64,000 nt of DNA from NCBI GenBank assembly GCA_002429485.1, contig DIZX01000009.1, positions 5,461 through 69,460 of the forward strand, in the 5' to 3' direction. Position 1 is the first letter of the stretch, and every line of letters begins with the position of its first letter. The stretch is from Patescibacteria group bacterium UBA6017 (lineage in GTDB: Bacteria > Patescibacteriota > Saccharimonadia > UBA4664). Made by a program: the position numbers and the translations under genes. The notes below the pieces were generated by a model. The model saw nothing but the letters and a program-made list of their open reading frames with translations, was not told the origin of the DNA and ran no database searches. Positions 52,452 through 62,569 of the stretch are shown here, in pieces.

Positions 52452-53924
52452 CTATATAGAAGCTCGCAGTTGTTCGTAGATTCGCACCATGGCCAGGGTG
52501 TCTTGTCCGCAATATTCCACCAGGTCGTCGTAGACGGCCGTCATCTTGTCGGGGGTAAGCTCGCCGCGGGCGGCGCGCATCCAGCGAATTTGGGCGGTCA
52601 TGCCCTCGCCGATGCCCAGGTCCTGGTATGACAATTCGGGTGCCAGGACGGGCAGTACCTTCTTGATGCTGGCGCTGCCCATAAAGCCGGGGTCGGCGTA
52701 CCAGCCGTTGGCGAAAATTTCCATGAGGTCGTACACTCGGGCGTTTACATCGGCCAAAAATTCGGCAAATTCGGGATGCAGGGCGGCCATGGCGTCGTTG
52801 CAGCCTATTTCGAAGCTCTTGTTCCACACGATGACGCTGCCGGTAGGGCCAAAATCGGCCTGCATGTGCTCGAGCAGCGTGGGAACGGGATAATTCCCTC
52901 CCCGAGCCAAAAATTCCTTATGGATCATCGGCCCGCCGGCGACCTCGATAACGTGCAGCGAGTACTGGAATGGTAATTGCTGGTAGGGCCGCACTCCGTT
53001 CCACAGCGGTAGGGCGCCGGCAAAGGTCTCGTAATCCAGGAAATACAGCGGATACACCAATTCGCCTAGAGAATGGGCAATTTTTTCACGGTGAATGTGG
53101 GGGGTTCCCGTGCGCACGACCTGAATCTGGGCGACTTGCTGAGGCTTGAGGTCGAAATCGTCGGGAATATCCCCAATCCGCGTCACTCCCTGCTCGGCCA
53201 AGGCCTTGATCTGGCCCAAATTCAGCCGGGTCAGGTTGAGGACGCTATTCGAGTCGATATCCGAATGCAGGTGCCGGTAGACGTCGCGCCAACCGAACCA
53301 ATCCCCTGCCAGTTCGGGTGCGTCATTGGGCACCTCGCCCAGCGCCATCACGGTCATGGCCGCTTCCACCTTGCCGGCGGTGCTGGCGGCCAGCGGCTCG
53401 ATCTGGTCAGTGACCTCCATGGTTGTAAATAATTTCTCGGGATCAATCTCCCCGTCGCGCACATATTGAGCATTAATGTGGACCACGAAACTGCGTCCGA
53501 TCTTATAGCCCGCTTCTTCCCAGACGTAGCGCTGGAAGGCCAGATCGAGCAAATGGGCGGTTTTCACCGAGGCGGCACCCTTGATCTCGTACAGATCCCA
53601 AGTCGACCCGCGTCGTACCATCACGTCCGAACGCACATACAGCCGACGGTCGGTCAGCACGCTGGGTTGAAACAGTACATCGGGGCCGCCGTCGCGCATC
53701 TGCCGGGCACTCTCGTCGGGGCCGTCAAACATCGGTACGTCCACTTCGTGTCCGCCTGGCCACAAGCTGACCGCCACGGCTTCCACGGCGTTGCCCTGGT
53801 CGACGTTTGCCTGGGCTACCTCGTTAAACTCCGGCAGCTCATCCTTGGCATACTTCGCCAGCCACAGGTAAGCCGGGTGAATCAGAAACTTCAGATAATC
53901 GGATTTGGTAAGCCACTTCGCCAT
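52452..53924 (-). CDS. DUF2779-family protein (predicted PD-(D/E)xK/Cas4-like plus RNase-H-like nuclease)
   Basis: YFLDYETFAGALPLWNGVRPYQQLPFQYSLHV is the hallmark DUF2779 segment. 490 aa. Confidence 0.65.
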   Translation of the reverse strand: MAKWLTKSDYLKFLIHPAYLWLAKYAKDELPEFNEVAQANVDQGNAVEAVAVSLWPGGHEVDVPMFDGPDESARQMRDGGPDVLFQPSVLTDRRLYVRSDVMVRRGSTWDLYEIKGAASVKTAHLLDLAFQRYVWEEAGYKIGRSFVVHINAQYVRDGEIDPEKLFTTMEVTDQIEPLAASTAGKVEAAMTVMALGEVPNDAPELAGDWFGWRDVYRHLHSDIDSNSVLNLTRLNLGQIKALAEQGVTRIGDIPDDFDLKPQQVAQIQVVRTGTPHIHREKIAHSLGELVYPLYFLDYETFAGALPLWNGVRPYQQLPFQYSLHVIEVAGGPMIHKEFLARGGNYPVPTLLEHMQADFGPTGSVIVWNKSFEIGCNDAMAALHPEFAEFLADVNARVYDLMEIFANGWYADPGFMGSASIKKVLPVLAPELSYQDLGIGEGMTAQIRWMRAARGELTPDKMTAVYDDLVEYCGQDTLAMVRIYEQLRASI

Positions 53925-54788: not shown

Positions 54789-55826
54789 TTAAGTACGATC
54801 TACTTTATCAGGCTTCTTATGCATTAACTTTTTAACTTCGCGGTCGAAGTCCGATTCGAAGGTTTTGTCTTGGGCAAGCTGGTATTTTTCGAATTCGGCT
54901 TCGGCGAAAGATTTAGCGACGGCAGCGGAGACTTTCCCGGGATTATTGAGAATCTCATATTCGTTAAATTGCAAAAACGCATCTAGTCTAGTCGCCCAAT
55001 CCGCCATGGTAAGCGGGACGTTACGAAGAGCCATGTTCTCGGCATAATCGAGATACATGGTCGTGAAGCGGTCGAGTTTTTCAAGCTCATCCTTGGAGAG
55101 ATAGTTTTTGGCTATGGCTACATCGGTTGGCAGAATTTTGCCAGTTGGCGAATATTTCCAGCTGGTGAGTCCCATGTGAGGTTTTTGGCTGTTTGCCCGA
55201 TCTTTGATGAGTTCCGCGGCGGTATGAGCGTGGATGGCAAAATGTAGTTTATTTTGCACAGTGGCAAAAAAGTCCTGAGTAAGCTGGTCGGACGGGTTAT
55301 AGTCGTACGCGGTAGAGTAAATATCGGTGATTTTCTGATAAAACTTACGCTCGCTACTCCGGATTTCCCGGATGAGAGCAACGAGACTATCGAAGTAATC
55401 TTGGCCGAAGTATTGGCCGTTCTTGAGCCGTTCATCGTCCAAAACGAAACCTTTGATGGTAAATTCTTTGAGAACTTGGGTAGCCCATTGGCGAAATTGT
55501 GTGGCTTTGTGGGTGTTGATGCGGTAGCCGACAGATATAATGGCGTCTAGATTGTAATGTTTGGTCTTGTAGTTCTTGCCGTCACTGGCAGTTACCGAGA
55601 AATCCTCGGCAACTGCCGAGCTGTCTAGCTCGCCATCGGCCAAAATATTCTTTAGATGCAGACTGATATTATCCGGGCTGCAATCAAAAAGCTTGGCCAT
55701 GAGCTTTTGCGTCATCCAAATAGTTTCGCCTTCGACGCGCACTTCTAGCGAGTCGCCGTCGCCTTGCATCGTAAAGACGATAAACCGGGCGGTGCTATTG
55801 ATAATTTGTGGTTTGCGTTCGCTCAT
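54789..55826 (-). CDS. RhuM-family (virulence RhuM / Fic-DOC-related) protein
   Basis: N-terminal EVRVEGETIWMTQKLMAKLFDCSPDNISLHLKNILADGEL and NLDAIISVGYRINTHKATQFRQWATQVLKEFTIKGFVLDDERLK match the conserved RhuM family. Confidence 0.8.
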   Translation of the reverse strand: MSERKPQIINSTARFIVFTMQGDGDSLEVRVEGETIWMTQKLMAKLFDCSPDNISLHLKNILADGELDSSAVAEDFSVTASDGKNYKTKHYNLDAIISVGYRINTHKATQFRQWATQVLKEFTIKGFVLDDERLKNGQYFGQDYFDSLVALIREIRSSERKFYQKITDIYSTAYDYNPSDQLTQDFFATVQNKLHFAIHAHTAAELIKDRANSQKPHMGLTSWKYSPTGKILPTDVAIAKNYLSKDELEKLDRFTTMYLDYAENMALRNVPLTMADWATRLDAFLQFNEYEILNNPGKVSAAVAKSFAEAEFEKYQLAQDKTFESDFDREVKKLMHKKPDKVDRT

Positions 55827-57185: not shown

Positions 57186-57210
57186 GAAAAACGTCTCCGT
57201 ATGGGAGACG
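57186..57210 (-). terminator. rho-independent terminator of the RM/membrane-protein operon (minus strand)
   Basis: On the minus strand: CGTCTCC-CATAC-GGAGACG followed by TTTTTCG. Confidence 0.45.
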
Positions 57211-57386
57211 CACCGTGACCTAAAATTTTATCGTAAGTTAGATAAGTAGATCCGATACGCCCGAGCTGGCCTTCCGCATGGAAAATTCAGCAGCAACAAC
57301 CCCGCCGGTATACAGGCGGCTGGTCGAGGTCGTGATGTGGTTCGGGTAGTATCGATTCATAATGTACGTACTATAACAGGTTGTGG

Positions 57387-58115
57387 TTATTTGTAAAGAG
57401 TGGGTTTGTACTGAGTGGCTAGATATTGCTTCATAAAAAAGCGACCTTTGTCTGTGAGCTCAATTTTGTTGCTATCAATCGTAATTAATTCATTGCCGTC
57501 AGCGTACGCGAGGATGTTTGTTGGAATACTGTTACCGCTACCAGATTCGTCCTCGTAACTTACGTACTTGTTATGTTCATAAAGCGCTTCTTTTATGTGT
57601 GCAAATTGGTTAAAAAGGGCGCTTTCCTTAAACTCTTTAAAGTCATGTAGCCAACTTTCGTTTACTTTATCCTTCAAGTCAATCACTTCTTTTTCCGCCT
57701 TAAGTGTAATGGCCTGAGTTGAAGCAAGTGCTTTTTTGCCTTTTTCATATTGATCCTCGAATCGTATCTTGATAAGTCTTCTATCATATTCATTTTCTTT
57801 TTCTTTTTCGTAAGAGGGTTTCAGAATTAGTCTTGGAAGCCACCAGATCATTACATAGGTAAGAAATGCTGCTAGGGAGATGAGTAGCGCCTGCGTAAGC
57901 CAATAGTGCCAGTCGTTTCGGCGAATCAGGACTGTCCATATATATTCATTTTTTAGCATATGTTTTTGGGTATATATCTGCTGCTGATCGATAAATAGCA
58001 GGGTGAAGAACAACTGAGAGTGCAGCACGATATACCAAAACGTGAATAAACCATAGACCTGTGTTTTTACGCGCGTCTTCCAATATTCGAGGATTGAGTG
58101 TACGACATCAGCCAC
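57387..58115 (-). CDS. hypothetical 2-TM membrane protein with a charged coiled-coil C-terminus, translationally coupled to the RM gene
   Basis: The GTG start overlaps the last 8 nt of the RM gene. AT-rich. Two hydrophobic helices, then a K/E-rich C-terminal region. Confidence 0.45.
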   Translation of the reverse strand: MADVVHSILEYWKTRVKTQVYGLFTFWYIVLHSQLFFTLLFIDQQQIYTQKHMLKNEYIWTVLIRRNDWHYWLTQALLISLAAFLTYVMIWWLPRLILKPSYEKEKENEYDRRLIKIRFEDQYEKGKKALASTQAITLKAEKEVIDLKDKVNESWLHDFKEFKESALFNQFAHIKEALYEHNKYVSYEDESGSGNSIPTNILAYADGNELITIDSNKIELTDKGRFFMKQYLATQYKPTLYK

Positions 58116-61100
58116 TTGAATCGACCGCCATCATTATCCTTGCTGTCTCGATGAGAACTTTGATAATCATTTGGTAATGATCGATGTCTTCGTTTGAAAC
58201 TTTTTTTCCTTTGCGATCTTTGAGCCACTTTTGCGCTGGCTGATAGCCACCTATATAGAAATTCCATGCAACATCTGGCACGTTGCCAAAATATTGAGAA
58301 TCGTTAATCCAAACTTGCCCCTCCGTGTAAGATATTCTATCTATCTCATCGCTTCCGGTAATTGGATAAGTAGTTGCATACTCATGGGCAAGTGTTGACG
58401 TCATAAGGTGGAGCCCGCGTAACTCCCGACCGAGCGCTATGAGCCTTACAAACCTGTCATTGCCGTTCGGTACTGGGACTCGCGGGAAGTCGGCTTTGAG
58501 GAACTCCTTATACATCTCTCGGTATTCGGGCGAATGCAGTGAGGCATAGATGTAGTCAAGAATGTCTTCCGGCGAATATTTTATGGTGAGGTTTTTTGTT
58601 AGTTGTTTAAGAGTATCGGGCTTAAAATTTGGTGTTCGTGTGCTGTCGTCGTGATATATGTAGAGGGGAAAAACAACTCCTCCGCCTCGGTAAAATAAGT
58701 TTAAATCGGACACGGTATCCTGCACGTATGCTAGGTTCCAGATGCCAGCTCCGACAGCCTGTCCTTGTCGCCCAATTGTAATACTTAGGTTTGGTTCGAG
58801 CATGTTCCTCAATACTTCATAGCGTGGCCAGTCGATTAGCCGCGTGTCATAAGCTATCTCGCGATTATCTAGTGGCCGGTATGAATATTTAATAATGTAT
58901 TCCTTTTCGCTTTGTTTGAACGAGCGTCTAACGCCATGGATTTCCCAACCTCGAGTGTCTCCGGGTAAATACTTGGTCGATCCAGGCTTGAAATATTTCG
59001 CCCGAATATCTGCATCTGATATCTGCAGGTCCAGAAAATCTTCTAGCCTTCTTTTTAATATATTCTTATCAAAATCCACTACAAAATTATCGCGAGATGT
59101 CTGGACCCCACTTGTTCCGCTGATGAATAGACTATTCACATCTACTCCCTCGTCGTATTTTGCGCGCCCTACATCGTTCTGTGGGGCGAATGTCAGTGTC
59201 TTCGCGTTTAGCGTGAGTTTGCTCCAATTGATGTCTTGGGTTAAAGCAATAAACTTATCTTTCCGAAGCCCAAAAAGCTTCGCATGCGAGACTTCAGCTA
59301 ATTGGCCTTTTCGTTTTGTGTTGGTTTTGACGGCGATCAAGATTGCTACACCTTGCATGATATCAAAAACGTTCTCGTCCTTATGCCCGTCCGGTGAAAT
59401 TTCTTTTTTAATTGTGTTGCCATGAAGATCAAGTACATAAATTTGATCAAAGGTTTTAGCGAGGTGCCATCGCATACCCCTGAAGGTTGGGTTGTCGAGA
59501 TAGCCGTGGTTCGTAATCATCGCAACCACGCCCTCTCCGTTTTTTTCGATTAGATCTTCTGTAAATGCAATGAATTTAACGTAGTCGTCGTTTAGCCAGT
59601 GCTTTCGTTCCTGTAGTTTTTGCTTACCACCGGGTTCAAATTTATATTTATCAACGAGTTTATTTGCATATGGAGTGTTATTGGAACTTACACCGGAATA
59701 TGGCGGATTCCCCATCACAATCATAATTGGACGTTCATGCTTAATAACGCTGGCTTTTCGGCTTTCTTCTGCCACTACATCGGCTAGGCCGAAATGAGAG
59801 AATAGATCGGATTGATTAGGGGAACCCTCCTCGAGCGTGTTGGTTAGGAATACGCCTAGGCGATCGGTGAGATCGGTGACACCTGTTTCTTGTAGGGTCA
59901 TGCCTAATTTTAGATGTGCGATCGTATATGGCGCCATCATGAGTTCGAAGCCATATAATCTGGGCAGTAGGTCTGTTTTTACATATGCGGGCCAGCGGCC
60001 TTCTTGGCCTCTGAAGCTTTCATGGATGAATTTGATGGTTTCATTCAGGAAGGTGGCTGTGCCGACGGCGGGGTCTAGAACTTGCACGCGGTGGAGTGTA
60101 TTTTTCGTGCCTGCTTTTAAGGTGCCGATGGTTCTTTTTTCTGTGTCAGCCAGGCCTTTTGGAATATTGAAGTCACGTTTGAGGATCTCGTCAACTTGCC
60201 GAACAATGAATCGAACGACGGGGACTGGGGTGTAGTAGGCTCCCATTTTTTTACGTTCTGCGGGGTCGTATTCTTTCAGAAAATCTTCATAAAAATGTAT
60301 TATGGGATCTTTATTCCCGTGTTCGGCGGCTATAACTTTGAGATGTTTGTTTACTATATCCTTCACGTCGCTGACCATGAAAACTTCGCAAAGCTCATCG
60401 ACAATATAACTTAGGCGTGCATCAAAATCGCTACCCGCGATATGATCGAAGAATTTGCGCAGGAATGGGTTGCTCTTTGGCACGAGGTCGCGCGCTTCTT
60501 GGCGAGTAAAATCTTCAGGAGTTGTGTCGCCGAAACGTGCCACAAACAGTCCGTAGACTAGGGTTTGAGCGTACATATCTGCGAATTTTTCAGCTGTCAG
60601 GTCGTGGACTAGCAGCTGGCGAAGCATGGCATAGATTTTTTCTAGCTCGGTATTGCTTTTGCTGTCGGCGTGCGCTAGGTAGAGCGTCACATTGTCACGG
60701 ATGCGACGGGCTTTGGCGCCCATGATTTCGGCTAGTCGGCGTCCGGATCGAATTCGTTCAGGGGGGAGACGCAAGAACTCGGCTAGTTCATCGGCAAGCT
60801 GTGGTGCTATTGTACGATCGGGAATAAGGATGCCATCTTTTATGCTCCCGAGTCGGAGGGTTTTGTATTTTTCGCCATTCTTGTAGAAACGAAATTCCAG
60901 ATAATCAGTCAGGAAAAGGTTGGCGTATCCTCCGTATCGTTGCATTTGGTTAGTTTTTTCGGTTTTATCTAGGCTGACATTTACGTCTTTTGCCTCTGCG
61001 TAGCCCAATATCATACTATGATTAGTCTTTTTCAAGAAAACCATATCTGGATTGCCATGTTCGCTCCTGCCAGGATCGTTGACTGCCCTGCAATCGTCAA

Positions 61101-61218
61101 AACTCTCCATAAGCTGCTGAAGAGCGGGTCGGTAGGCGTGCTCTCGCGCATGCCCTGTCGCTAGCTGGGACTGAACCTCGGCTAAATATTTTGTTACTGC
61201 AGCGGAGTTATTTGCCAT
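58108..61218 (-). CDS. single-polypeptide Type IIG (MmeI/ISP-like) restriction-modification enzyme: PD-ExK nuclease, N6-adenine methyltransferase and target-recognition domain
   Basis: N-terminal NPDMVF...GYAEAKD (PD...ExK). MTase motif I VLDPAVGTATFL and motif IV MGNPPYSG. C-terminal WNFYIGGYQPAQKWLKDRKGKKVSNEDIDHYQMIIKVLIETARIM is typical of Type ISP/IIG C-terminal domains. 1036 aa. Confidence 0.8.
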   Translation of the reverse strand: MANNSAAVTKYLAEVQSQLATGHAREHAYRPALQQLMESFDDCRAVNDPGRSEHGNPDMVFLKKTNHSMILGYAEAKDVNVSLDKTEKTNQMQRYGGYANLFLTDYLEFRFYKNGEKYKTLRLGSIKDGILIPDRTIAPQLADELAEFLRLPPERIRSGRRLAEIMGAKARRIRDNVTLYLAHADSKSNTELEKIYAMLRQLLVHDLTAEKFADMYAQTLVYGLFVARFGDTTPEDFTRQEARDLVPKSNPFLRKFFDHIAGSDFDARLSYIVDELCEVFMVSDVKDIVNKHLKVIAAEHGNKDPIIHFYEDFLKEYDPAERKKMGAYYTPVPVVRFIVRQVDEILKRDFNIPKGLADTEKRTIGTLKAGTKNTLHRVQVLDPAVGTATFLNETIKFIHESFRGQEGRWPAYVKTDLLPRLYGFELMMAPYTIAHLKLGMTLQETGVTDLTDRLGVFLTNTLEEGSPNQSDLFSHFGLADVVAEESRKASVIKHERPIMIVMGNPPYSGVSSNNTPYANKLVDKYKFEPGGKQKLQERKHWLNDDYVKFIAFTEDLIEKNGEGVVAMITNHGYLDNPTFRGMRWHLAKTFDQIYVLDLHGNTIKKEISPDGHKDENVFDIMQGVAILIAVKTNTKRKGQLAEVSHAKLFGLRKDKFIALTQDINWSKLTLNAKTLTFAPQNDVGRAKYDEGVDVNSLFISGTSGVQTSRDNFVVDFDKNILKRRLEDFLDLQISDADIRAKYFKPGSTKYLPGDTRGWEIHGVRRSFKQSEKEYIIKYSYRPLDNREIAYDTRLIDWPRYEVLRNMLEPNLSITIGRQGQAVGAGIWNLAYVQDTVSDLNLFYRGGGVVFPLYIYHDDSTRTPNFKPDTLKQLTKNLTIKYSPEDILDYIYASLHSPEYREMYKEFLKADFPRVPVPNGNDRFVRLIALGRELRGLHLMTSTLAHEYATTYPITGSDEIDRISYTEGQVWINDSQYFGNVPDVAWNFYIGGYQPAQKWLKDRKGKKVSNEDIDHYQMIIKVLIETARIMMAVDSSG

Positions 61219-61249
61219 GTATTGCCATTATACCCTGATTATTCCTAGC

Positions 61250-61876
61250 TTAAGGCCAGGTGATCTTTTCGATGATGCGCTCTTTTTGAATTCGGCGGGT
61301 AATAACGGCCTCTGAAGTGCCGAATACAAACGCTATAGCTGGGGTTAGGCTCGCTAGTATGAGGGGTAATCCAACATTAAGTTTCTGAAGTTCATCGCGA
61401 TTTGCATTGAGCAGAGTCTGCGCTGTAGACAAGAGCGTTTCGGGTGGTACGAGGAGCCTACCGGCGAATTCGTCGGCATCGCGCTCGAGAGCGGTGTATT
61501 CGTCGTCCGTGATGGTTTTCATAAAATTATATGCATCGCTCATGTTCTTGAGATTCAGACTTTCGTAAAAATCACGGTGGAGGAGCCGGTGTCCGAGTTC
61601 ATGGGCTAGGCTGAATCGTAGGCGGTTACTAAATAGGCTATCCATGTACTCATCCTGATCGACATAGATAATATCCATATTGGACATGATTAGGGCGTCG
61701 ATATCGTACATTTCTTTGAGTTGTTTTACGGGACGAACTTCGATCTGTAGATCGAGCTCAATTATGGCCATGATATCGACCGGAAGCTCCCCCGCTGCAT
61801 TTTGTTCTCGGAATTCATCGGCGACTTTGCGGAGATGGTTGACGGCGTATTTGGGTAGCTCCGGTCGTGTGCTCAT
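61250..61876 (-). CDS. ImmA/IrrE-family zinc metallopeptidase (DUF955)
   Basis: HEXXH LAHELGHRLLH plus the downstream E in DADEFAGRLLVP. Lies 3 nt after the XRE gene. Confidence 0.8.
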   Translation of the reverse strand: MSTRPELPKYAVNHLRKVADEFREQNAAGELPVDIMAIIELDLQIEVRPVKQLKEMYDIDALIMSNMDIIYVDQDEYMDSLFSNRLRFSLAHELGHRLLHRDFYESLNLKNMSDAYNFMKTITDDEYTALERDADEFAGRLLVPPETLLSTAQTLLNANRDELQKLNVGLPLILASLTPAIAFVFGTSEAVITRRIQKERIIEKITWP

Positions 61877-61879
61877 GAA

Positions 61880-62251
61880 TTAGCTTTCTTTCAATAGTTC
61901 GATGAGTTTTTCGATTTCTTCTTTGGTGGGCTTTTGGCCGCGCAGAGTACGGAAGAATGCTGGGATGTGTTCCATGATGTTTTCTTGCTCCAGGATATCT
62001 TTCGGGATCATTCCCTTGGATAGAGACACGTTGTCCAGGAAAGCTTGGTGCTCGGGGGTGTCGGCTTTGAGCTCTAGTGCTGTGCTCCAGTGCTCTAGGG
62101 TTTCGGTATCTGATGGGGGCGGTAAGATGCCTCGTTCGATCTTGCTCCAATTGCTGGGGTCATACTCGGCAGCACGACAGACGTCACGAAGTGACAATCG
62201 TTTACTTATTCTTAATTCGCGTAGGTATTCGCCGAAAGGTTTGCTCACCAT
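61880..62251 (-). CDS. XRE-family helix-turn-helix transcriptional regulator
   Basis: FGEYLRELRISKRLSLRDVCRAAEYDPSNWSKIERG is a Cro/C1-type HTH. RBS AGGAGG. Confidence 0.8.
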   Translation of the reverse strand: MVSKPFGEYLRELRISKRLSLRDVCRAAEYDPSNWSKIERGILPPPSDTETLEHWSTALELKADTPEHQAFLDNVSLSKGMIPKDILEQENIMEHIPAFFRTLRGQKPTKEEIEKLIELLKES

Positions 62252-62273
62252 GGCCTCCTGCTGATTAATTATC

Positions 62274-62313
62274 GTGGTATTGATTTACTACGAACTGTGG
62301 TAATATCCTACCA
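62274..62313. promoter_or_regulatory. candidate operator in the divergent XRE/DUF2188 promoter region (repeated GTGGTAWT half-sites and an inverted repeat TGGTA-N6-TACCA)
   Basis: GTGGTAT at 62274-62280, GTGGTAAT at 62297-62304, and TGGTAATATCCTACCA at 62298-62313. Confidence 0.3.
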
Positions 62314-62344
62314 TATACTAATTTTAAGTACAACGGGGGTTATT

Positions 62345-62569
62345 ATGGCAAATCGCCATGTGGTACCACATAACGGTAAATGGGCGGATCGGGCCGAAGG
62401 AGCAAGTCGAGTTGGAGGTATTTATGATACTCAGGCTCAAGCATTTGATGCTGGTCGTGCGCGGGTAATTAATAGTGGCGGGGGCGAATTGCGAATTCAC
62501 GGCGAGAACGGCAAGATTCGTGATAGCAATACTTACGGCAAGGTTGATCCATACCCGCCAAAGGGTTAG
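62345..62569 (+). CDS. DUF2188-family small protein
   Basis: MANRHVVPHNGKWADRAEGASRVGGIYDTQAQAFDAGRARVINSGGGELRIHGENGKIRDSNTYG matches the DUF2188 pattern (HV.P...W......S.....TQ.EA...AR......ELVIHG.DG.IRD...YG). The track ORF N-terminal extension is rejected. Confidence 0.7.
   Translation: MANRHVVPHNGKWADRAEGASRVGGIYDTQAQAFDAGRARVINSGGGELRIHGENGKIRDSNTYGKVDPYPPKG

Follow-up and report, generated by a model that had tools for sequence, protein, structure and literature searches.

Organization and base composition of the locus

A gene for a restriction-modification (RM) enzyme in the genome of Patescibacteria group bacterium UBA6017 stands behind genes for an XRE repressor and an M78 peptidase and overlaps the gene of a small membrane protein, and this arrangement raises the question of whether the first two genes form a switch that governs the enzyme and of what the membrane protein contributes to restriction. 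The stretch analysed here, referred to as the window, comprises 64,000 nucleotides of contig DIZX01000009.1. We propose that the block at positions 57387-62569 of the window is a composite of three modules, namely a DrdV-like enzyme, a DUF2188/XRE-M78 switch and a membrane-anchored winged-helix protein. For the whole explanation, in which the switch would control the enzyme and the membrane protein would act as its accessory, we estimate a probability of about 0.5.

Direct reading of the sequence recovered the four open reading frames listed in a preliminary description of this DNA, together with their positions, spacing, overlap and downstream terminator. The genes for the XRE protein (61880-62251), the M78 peptidase (61250-61876), the RM enzyme (58108-61218) and the membrane protein (57387-58115, with a GTG start) follow one another on the minus strand. 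Three nucleotides separate the XRE stop codon from the M78 start and 31 nt separate the M78 stop from the RM start, while the end of the RM gene and the GTG start of the membrane gene overlap by 8 nt (GTGGCTGA). A terminator-like hairpin of eight pairs followed by a T run (57191-57211, minus strand), situated 175 nt beyond the membrane gene, closes this co-directional gene string. The earlier family assignments (HTH_31, Peptidase_M78, and N6_Mtase with Type_ISP_C) hold as well. On the plus strand, divergent from the XRE gene and inside the same low-GC block, lies a gene for a 74-aa DUF2188 protein (62345-62569).

The guanine-plus-cytosine (GC) content of the block, put at approximately 40% in the preliminary description, was measured at 45.3-45.4%, but no other 5.2-kb stretch of the window has a lower GC content (window mean 54.4%, standard deviation 3.8). 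Low GC extends from about 57.2 kb to 62.57 kb, so that the previously omitted DUF2188 gene falls within it. The DUF2188, XRE, M78 and RM genes are similar in composition (46-49%; RM 45.8%, XRE and M78 48-49%), and the membrane gene has a GC content of 39.2%. The RM gene lies 9.0 points below the rest of the window, a larger deficit than at all 66 loci with relatives of the enzyme for which the difference from the flanks was measured (mean -0.8 points, minimum -8.5). Genes of the membrane-protein family were found 4-18 GC points under their own locus in every case measured (L010-L025, L114 and L117, where L numbers denote comparison loci), housekeeping positions included, and this strong bias can mimic a signal of horizontal transfer. 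Because the family genes lie below locus GC everywhere, even beside the gene for glycyl-tRNA synthetase (GlyRS), the low GC of the membrane gene is uninformative on transfer. Of the acquisition formerly claimed from low GC, the part that stands is acquisition of the block, which the deficit of the RM gene supports; the 39% of the membrane gene is compositional and gives no evidence of transfer. Identical copies of the locus occur only in metagenome assemblies of the same species.

A DrdV-like restriction-modification enzyme

The RM enzyme (1036 aa) matched the Type IIG profile of PADLOC (REase_MTase_IIG) at 4e-267 and the Pfam families Type_ISP_C (2.6e-79, residues 697-1029) and N6_Mtase (2e-12). 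Its chain consists of a PD-ExK nuclease (approximately residues 1-150; 60769-61218), a helical connector, an N6-adenine methyltransferase (MTase) with the NPPY motif at 59698-59709, and a Type_ISP_C target recognition domain (TRD; 58132-59130). The nuclease motif P57-D58...E75-x-K77 was invariant in alignments of 22 and of 33 relatives, as was N504-P-P-Y507 across 22 relatives. In the AlphaFold model of the full-length protein (pLDDT, the predicted local distance difference test, 80.6), D58 opens one strand and the ExK element closes the next. The best Foldseek match of this model was DrdV (E 5.5e-41), aligned end to end over approximately 1120 columns; LlaBIII came next, and BrxX/PglX of the bacteriophage exclusion (BREX) systems were far weaker (E 1e-11 to 1e-12). 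By sequence, the MTase and TRD resemble LlaBIII, LlaGI and DrdV, and a profile of the N-terminal nuclease domain detected no solved relative in the PDB. The preliminary description of a single-chain Type IIG enzyme with PD-ExK nuclease, NPPY MTase and TRD is thus borne out by the PADLOC score, the invariant motifs and the DrdV fold match.

The two identities that had been named as contrary to that description, a PglX protein or a solitary MTase devoid of a nuclease, do not apply, as the nuclease motif is present; for PglX/BrxX, BREX genes are moreover absent within 10 kb, and the fold match stays at the low level given above. Type ISP identity was rejected too. There was no ResIII, DEAD or helicase Pfam match in the 1036 aa, no superfamily 2 (SF2) helicase lies between nuclease and MTase, and the alignment with LlaBIII begins at LlaBIII residue 842, past the helicase. 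The lack of a helicase module sets the protein apart from Type ISP even though the TRD is common to both, and the NCBI label 'type ISP restriction/modification enzyme' carried by its relatives mirrors the shared TRD only. No hsdS-like gene was found near the RM gene, the TRD being part of the same chain.

The enzyme is a complete, ordinary Type IIL/IIG enzyme of the DrdV-like kind, and its family numbers over 6,300 clusters of approximately 1,030 aa, many of them from Patescibacteria. DrdV itself is a 1029-aa Type IIL enzyme in which nuclease, connector, MTase and TRD follow in this order (bioRxiv 10.1101/2021.01.06.425610). By analogy with DrdV and judging from family membership, the enzyme of the window would be expected to modify a single strand of an asymmetric site by methylation and to cut unmodified DNA at a fixed distance once several site-bound molecules assemble.

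A short CapH/CapP-like switch and its predicted operators

The XRE protein (123 aa) matches HTH_31 (2e-11) and the capH profile of PADLOC (5e-6; protein residues 2-122, profile positions 3-100 of 103), and its gene has an AGGAGG ribosome-binding site 5 nt upstream. The M78 protein (208 aa) matches Peptidase_M78 (2e-8) and the capP profile (4e-17), the latter over profile positions 3-123 of 242 only. Its sole solved relative is the peptidase core of CapP (7T5T), with the match confined to residues 77-147. The zinc site consists of the HEXXH motif H92-E93-x-x-H96 and a third ligand, E131, and residues H92, E93 and E131 are invariant, with H96 conserved as well, in a subfamily of 343 members that are uniformly about 208-212 aa long. 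The protein has no GAF domain and, because no cysteine lies between HEXXH and E131, no cysteine switch. The reading of the two genes as repressor and protease, already made in the preliminary description, is confirmed insofar as the capH and capP profile matches, with the CapP core as solved relative, mark a genuine pair of the CapH/CapP-ImmR/ImmA type.

CapP has been described as a peptidase with a central helix-turn-helix (HTH) and a C-terminal GAF domain forming a groove for single-stranded DNA (ssDNA), and in the CapH/CapP system the peptidase cuts the repressor upon stimulation by ssDNA or DNA damage. Lau et al. 2022 found capH-capP always upstream of the target operon and on the opposite strand, DUF2188 operons being among the targets. 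In the window, this opposite-strand, shared-promoter layout is present for the DUF2188 gene (Pfam DUF2188 8.4e-21; called as 74 aa in identical contigs); the RM gene instead lies downstream and is co-directional. The closest relative of the pair, in L108 (XRE 61% and M78 46% identical), is also accompanied by a divergent DUF2188 gene, 53% identical and missed by the gene caller. The XRE protein is likewise 61% identical to the HTH protein of L109, and each of the four distinct cassette relatives has an HTH gene immediately ahead of M78. As far as can be judged from sequence, XRE/M78 is a short, GAF-less relative of CapH/CapP whose conserved partner is the divergent DUF2188 gene.

The 93-bp intergenic region between the XRE and DUF2188 genes contains a tandem palindrome (GTGGTA-N6-TACCAC, two copies). 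The copy at 62298-62313 (O1) is a perfect 16-bp palindrome, TGGTA-N6-TACCA, and the copy at 62275-62290 (O2), 23 bp apart, differs from it by one mismatch; each is a candidate XRE operator. Only three matches with at most one mismatch to the palindrome occur in the 64-kb window, and O1 and O2 are two of them. A corresponding pair of TGTGGTA-N6-TACCACA elements lies at -67/-45 in L108 and at -65/-41 in L109, with the copies 22-24 bp apart; L113 and L122 have one copy of the element each and L111 a variant half-site. On this good comparative evidence, the tandem palindromes are predicted to be the XRE operator in the shared promoter region. XRE dimers would occupy both palindromes, and upon a stress or infection signal M78 would cleave XRE, de-repressing both divergent transcripts.

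A different origin of the pair was also considered, according to which XRE-M78 is the remnant of an immunity module (ImmR/ImmA) of a prophage or an integrative and conjugative element, or a COG2856-Xre pair resembling a toxin-antitoxin, and has nothing to do with the control of defence genes. COG2856-Xre has reportedly been put forward in one earlier paper as a toxin-antitoxin-like module. Weak PHROG matches to repressor and metalloprotease families point in this direction, as do the relatives in L109 and L110, which have a serine recombinase and further HTH genes in their neighbourhood. However, neither an integrase nor a phage structural gene is present within 10 kb on either side, no tRNA is nearby, and viral contigs hold only distant M78 relatives of at most 34% identity (with DUF2188 within 5 kb in 10 of 80 such contigs). 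The module is, moreover, kept with DUF2188 and the operator, as is the case for CapH/CapP-type regulators, and we consider the remnant origin highly improbable. A switch of the CapH/CapP kind remains our reading of the pair.

Possible control of the restriction enzyme by the switch

In the 31-nt spacer between M78 and RM (61219-61249, minus strand) a hairpin is absent, as is a Shine-Dalgarno sequence that could serve the RM gene, and neither a terminator-like nor a two-hexamer promoter-like site was found in it on the minus strand. With no terminator in this gap and with the RM stop codon lying inside the overlap with the membrane gene, xre-M78-RM-mem is the most likely transcript. It would end at the hairpin at 57191-57211, and the RM enzyme would have a basal level plus a boost upon release of the switch. 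Such read-through control would be specific to this lineage; with odds close to even, it is in our view the most likely arrangement in this genome.

Genes that follow M78 in the same direction were observed in further loci of the pair. They begin 31-39 nt past M78 in L109 (6670-7952; a DUF6804 protein and a PRK/AAA_18 kinase-like protein) and in L112 (6668-9337; three proteins of 205, 109 and 470 aa with no Pfam match), and may be uncharacterised cargoes of the XRE-M78 switch; L111 has nothing obvious after M78. The junctions past M78 show no sequence similarity among the cassette relatives.

An upstream HTH gene is also seen from the side of the enzyme, in a comparison of 80 metagenomic loci whose enzymes are 47-59% identical to that of the window. 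In three of these, an HTH_3 gene of 65-70 aa ends 2-4 nt before the RM gene (L079 128-334; L082 227-424; L098 194-406), and these genes resemble C-protein controllers. Upstream HTH control therefore occurs in the RM enzyme family, since 3/80 relatives carry such a gene. A small gene of the MerR/HTH_17 type occupies the same position in L088 (5764-5973). A weak ImmA-like match upstream of the RM relative in L093 was rejected as a 4Fe-4S protein.

A number of observations weigh against control of the RM gene by the switch, and most of them would fit another arrangement, in which XRE-M78 regulates only itself and DUF2188, and the RM-membrane pair landed alongside and is constitutively expressed from a weak promoter of its own, possibly without a leader. 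In L108, the DUF2188, XRE and M78 genes and the operators are present with neither an RM gene nor other co-directional cargo, and the CapH/CapP operons of Lau et al. 2022 were all divergent, their targets always lying on the opposite strand. A scan of the 64-kb window found no operator copy before the RM gene. The M78 gene is absent from all 80 loci of RM relatives, and Peptidase_M78 is not among the 25 most frequent families of their 133 upstream neighbours; conversely, none of the four distinct cassette loci has an RM gene. Further, a lone TATAAT (61227-61232) stands 8 nt ahead of the RM ATG, and a mini-ORF of six codons (ATGGCAATACATGGCAAATAA; 61208-61228, minus strand) with AGGG before it overlaps the RM start codon. 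Judging from these elements, the TATAAT together with the missing Shine-Dalgarno sequence could reflect either an independent leaderless RM transcript or initiation coupled to the upstream open reading frame. The M78 protein, finally, lacks the GAF part of the ssDNA-binding groove seen in CapP and IrrE. On the other side, the M78-RM gap is free of a terminator and of a two-hexamer promoter, and the co-directional genes of L109 and L112, 31-39 nt after M78, make the layout a recurring one. The GC content of 46-49% shared by DUF2188, XRE, M78 and RM fits arrival as one block. We take a self-contained switch to be a possible explanation, with a chance well short of even.

Two further sequence searches bear on the promoters. 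A scan with the sigma-70 consensus, which may not be that of the host, yielded no promoter either between the XRE and DUF2188 genes or ahead of RM. A 14-nt similarity ahead of the RM and DUF2188 starts (pair I2) was discarded as a chance match, being one of 21 pairs of comparable quality and reflecting a shared ATGGCAAAT start.

The preliminary description went further than read-through control and placed the pair in the slot of a C protein. In the corresponding evolutionary version, XRE-M78 arose as a dedicated replacement of a C-protein controller, and the membrane protein, once triggered by the enzyme, acts as an effector of abortive infection or of exclusion. As regards position, the claim stands, for the pair sits in the place of the HTH_3 genes of L079, L082 and L098; as regards a conserved link to the RM gene, it does not. 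The conservation of the XRE-ImmA-RM-membrane quartet, recommended there as a check, was not observed, as neither M78 nor the membrane family occurs in any of the 80 RM loci and no cassette relative has an RM gene. Pair and enzyme are not co-conserved in either direction, and the partner that the pair has kept is DUF2188. Together with the evidence on the membrane protein given below, this leads us to judge the dedicated-controller version improbable. The combination of XRE-M78 with RM has the look of a juxtaposition and not of a design that evolved and was conserved, and read-through from the switch would be a property of this lineage.

A membrane-anchored winged-helix family in restriction-modification operons

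The membrane protein has 242 aa, and its GTG start is supported by the N-termini of 60 homologs, which align with it. The preliminary description of a protein with two transmembrane segments and no family assignment proved accurate: hydrophobic segments were found at residues 22-42 and 71-99, and there was no match in Pfam, PADLOC, NCBIfam or PHROGs, nor a fold match in BFVD. In the confident structural model, residues 69-163 form one long helix and residues 171-235 a C-terminal winged-helix-like domain, in which the motif T221-x-K-G-[KR]-x-F227 is conserved. Against PDB folds, only the C-terminal 70 residues find a match, to winged-helix domains. The family comprises 293 representatives, mostly from Patescibacteria, and no member was found in IMG/VR. 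A literature search found no description of such a membrane partner of RM genes, which is not proof of absence, and the membrane-anchored winged-helix family is apparently undescribed.

The coupling of the membrane gene to the RM gene, as claimed previously, is upheld by the 8-nt overlap and the homolog-supported start. Genes of this family overlap the stop codon of various upstream genes, namely RM in the window (58108-58115), GlyRS (L121 1507-1514; L007 1080-1083) and Type III mod (L014 7989-7999). Both in the window (GTGGCTGA) and in L121 (ATGGGTGA), the upstream TGA falls in codons 2-3 of the membrane gene, with the same 8-nt geometry. This pattern suggests that translational coupling is a property of the membrane family.

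Across 25 distinct genomic contexts of the family, 10 are linked to RM genes, 8 are housekeeping and 7 are other. In nine of the 25, the gene is directly adjacent to RM genes, with gaps of -11 to +18 nt; the binomial probability of this is 5e-4 if a background rate of 10% RM neighbours is assumed. The nearest homolog (P0124, 45% identical; L114) is encoded 4 nt downstream of an MmeI-family enzyme, and the gene of P0126 (39% identical; L120) begins 4 nt after the fragment of a Type_ISP_C enzyme whose identity to the enzyme of the window is 64%. In Type III systems, the membrane gene stands between mod and res, directly in L014 and L017 (gaps -11 to +6 nt) and preceded by an unknown gene in L011. 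An MTase, an unknown gene, the membrane gene and Mrr follow one another in L013, and the order is DpnII restriction endonuclease, DUF6997, MTase and membrane gene in L020. In L025, the membrane gene precedes an MmeI/Eco57I-type MTase and a T5orf172/ResIII protein, and in L018 it is found near a ResIII helicase. Its co-conservation is thus to be answered in two parts: with the RM family of the window there is none (0/80 loci), and with RM systems in general it exists (10/25 contexts).

Several of these contexts contain additional genes. A Zeta-toxin/AAA_33 kinase gene follows the MmeI-family enzyme and the membrane gene in L114 (3452-4147) and L115 (964-1659), which fits the setting of a defence island. 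Unannotated genes lie between MTase or helicase and the membrane gene in L011 (6979-7965, 328 aa), L013 (2106-2801, 231 aa) and L018 (6237-7989, 278 and 303 aa). None of the four has a Pfam match, and they may be further accessory components.

According to the explanation that we favour, the membrane protein, translationally coupled to the RM enzyme, would hold its winged-helix domain in the cytoplasm, borne by a long stalk at the membrane's inner face, where as an accessory it would tether DNA or the RM enzyme. This is the weakest step of the explanation. More generally, we suggest, and only tentatively, that the family is a dedicated RM accessory in Patescibacteria, interchangeable among Type III, IIL/IIG, II and Mrr systems and localising restriction or incoming DNA to the membrane. 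In the winged-helix domain, the helix that would serve for recognition is not basic, so that DNA binding is no more than a possibility; this weighs against the accessory role, as does the absence of the membrane-family gene from the 80 RM-relative loci; in addition, none of the 18 reference loci of the membrane family contains a relative of the RM enzyme, XRE or M78 of the window.

The housekeeping contexts, approximately 8 of the 25, with GlyRS or ribosomal protein genes as neighbours, likewise weigh against an accessory role. GlyRS precedes the membrane gene in L007-L009, L117-L119 and L121; the order GlyRS, membrane gene and, in part, YecM makes up four distinct contexts, one of which recurs on 23 contigs, while in four contexts the neighbours are ribosomal protein genes. 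Such neighbourhoods would be expected of a general envelope- or nucleoid-associated protein with no role in restriction, found together with RM genes through insertion or hitch-hiking, and with this agree both the low GC, which is a family property rather than a mark of mobility, and the absence of the gene next to all 80 relatives of the enzyme. However, a bystander would not be expected between mod and res (L014 and L017) or between an unknown gene and res (L011), the 9/25 contexts adjoin RM genes of several unrelated types, and the homologs P0124 and P0126 are both RM-linked. A purely housekeeping function is therefore doubtful in our judgement, although it keeps an appreciable chance.

For an effector of abortive infection or exclusion, the overlap of the membrane gene with the RM stop codon could be adduced. 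No specific support for this idea was found: the model comprises an anchor, a long helix and a winged helix, not a pore-like or enzymatic module, no counterpart is present in PADLOC, PHROG or BFVD, and some family members reside in housekeeping operons. The accessory role at the membrane stays the tentative choice for this protein.

Neighbouring genes

A RhuM-family gene (54789-55826, minus strand; GC 46.8%) that matches the PADLOC candidate system PDC-S05 (6e-150) is the second gene past the membrane gene, with an MFS gene of 58.5% GC in between. RhuM homologs are found directly downstream of RM relatives in L037 (9109-10056) and L077 (5752-6750), and nearby in L064 and L102. Farther on, the window contains a DUF2779 gene (52452-53924, minus strand), the membrane, MFS and RhuM genes lying between it and RM. 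In other loci, DUF2779 follows the RM relative after zero to two genes (L080 5597-7093; L031 9693-11168; L062 10362-11891; L087 12068-13567), and the intervening genes differ. The stretch from RM to DUF2779 looks like a variable slot, or RM and DUF2779 may be functionally linked. DUF2207 is similarly close upstream of RM relatives in L028 and L089.

Significance and comparison with known systems

The enzyme and the switch are each of known kinds, and on present evidence a protease-gated restriction enzyme would be a lineage-specific juxtaposition and not a new regulatory class. What is new here on the side of the switch is the description of a short, GAF-less CapH/CapP variant together with its operator. 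A GAF-less branch with a conserved tandem operator and varied co-directional cargo would broaden the ways in which switches of this kind are connected with the genes they control. Of greatest interest in this locus is the recurrent association of the membrane family with RM systems: these unannotated membrane-anchored winged-helix proteins are encoded within RM operons of at least five types in bacteria of the candidate phyla radiation, in Type III systems even with mod on one side and res on the other. Should the family prove a true RM accessory, membrane localisation would be a reusable add-on to restriction and a new modular, spatial layer of RM defence. It would also open defence in this little-studied, small-genome group to concrete testing. 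To our knowledge, Patescibacteria largely lack CRISPR.

Among known enzymes, DrdV (PDB 7LO5/7LVV) shares with the RM enzyme of the window the length class (1029 versus 1036 aa) and the domain order, and phmmer relates the two at 1e-39 over MTase and TRD. The identity in the structural alignment is only about 21%, however, and the N-terminal domain has no sequence-level match in the PDB. MmeI and BpuSI are more distant known relatives than DrdV. With the Type ISP enzymes LlaBIII and LlaGI the window enzyme has a homologous MTase and Type_ISP_C TRD in common (4XQK 2e-44; Pfam 2.6e-79), whereas it differs from them in having no helicase/ATPase module and in its length of 1036 aa as against 1400-1580 aa.

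Classical C proteins act alone as concentration-dependent activator-repressors. The window resembles C-protein RM systems in the HTH gene that lies upstream of, and co-directional with, the restriction gene and in the palindromes upstream of this HTH gene. It departs from them in that the HTH protein, of 123 aa, resembles CapH in its C-terminal part and has a protease as partner, which implies release by cleavage, and in that the pair is not conserved with the enzyme. The likeness to CapH/CapP consists of an HTH repressor and an M78 peptidase encoded together, divergent from DUF2188, and of a conserved element in the shared promoter region, for which binding in the window is a prediction from sequence. 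Unlike CapP, the peptidase of the window is 208 aa long and lacks both a GAF domain and a cysteine switch, and the defence gene is downstream and co-directional, a layout not reported by Lau et al. 2022.

The membrane protein showed no sequence or fold relationship to components of Zorya, SNIPE or Kiwa. It is small, with two transmembrane segments and a winged helix, and differs in this from a motor, a nuclease or a multi-transmembrane sensor. The likeness to Zorya ZorAB, SNIPE and Kiwa KwaA is one of concept only: in each of them, as would be the case for the protein of the window, a membrane-anchored part is combined with a cytoplasmic activity that targets nucleic acids.

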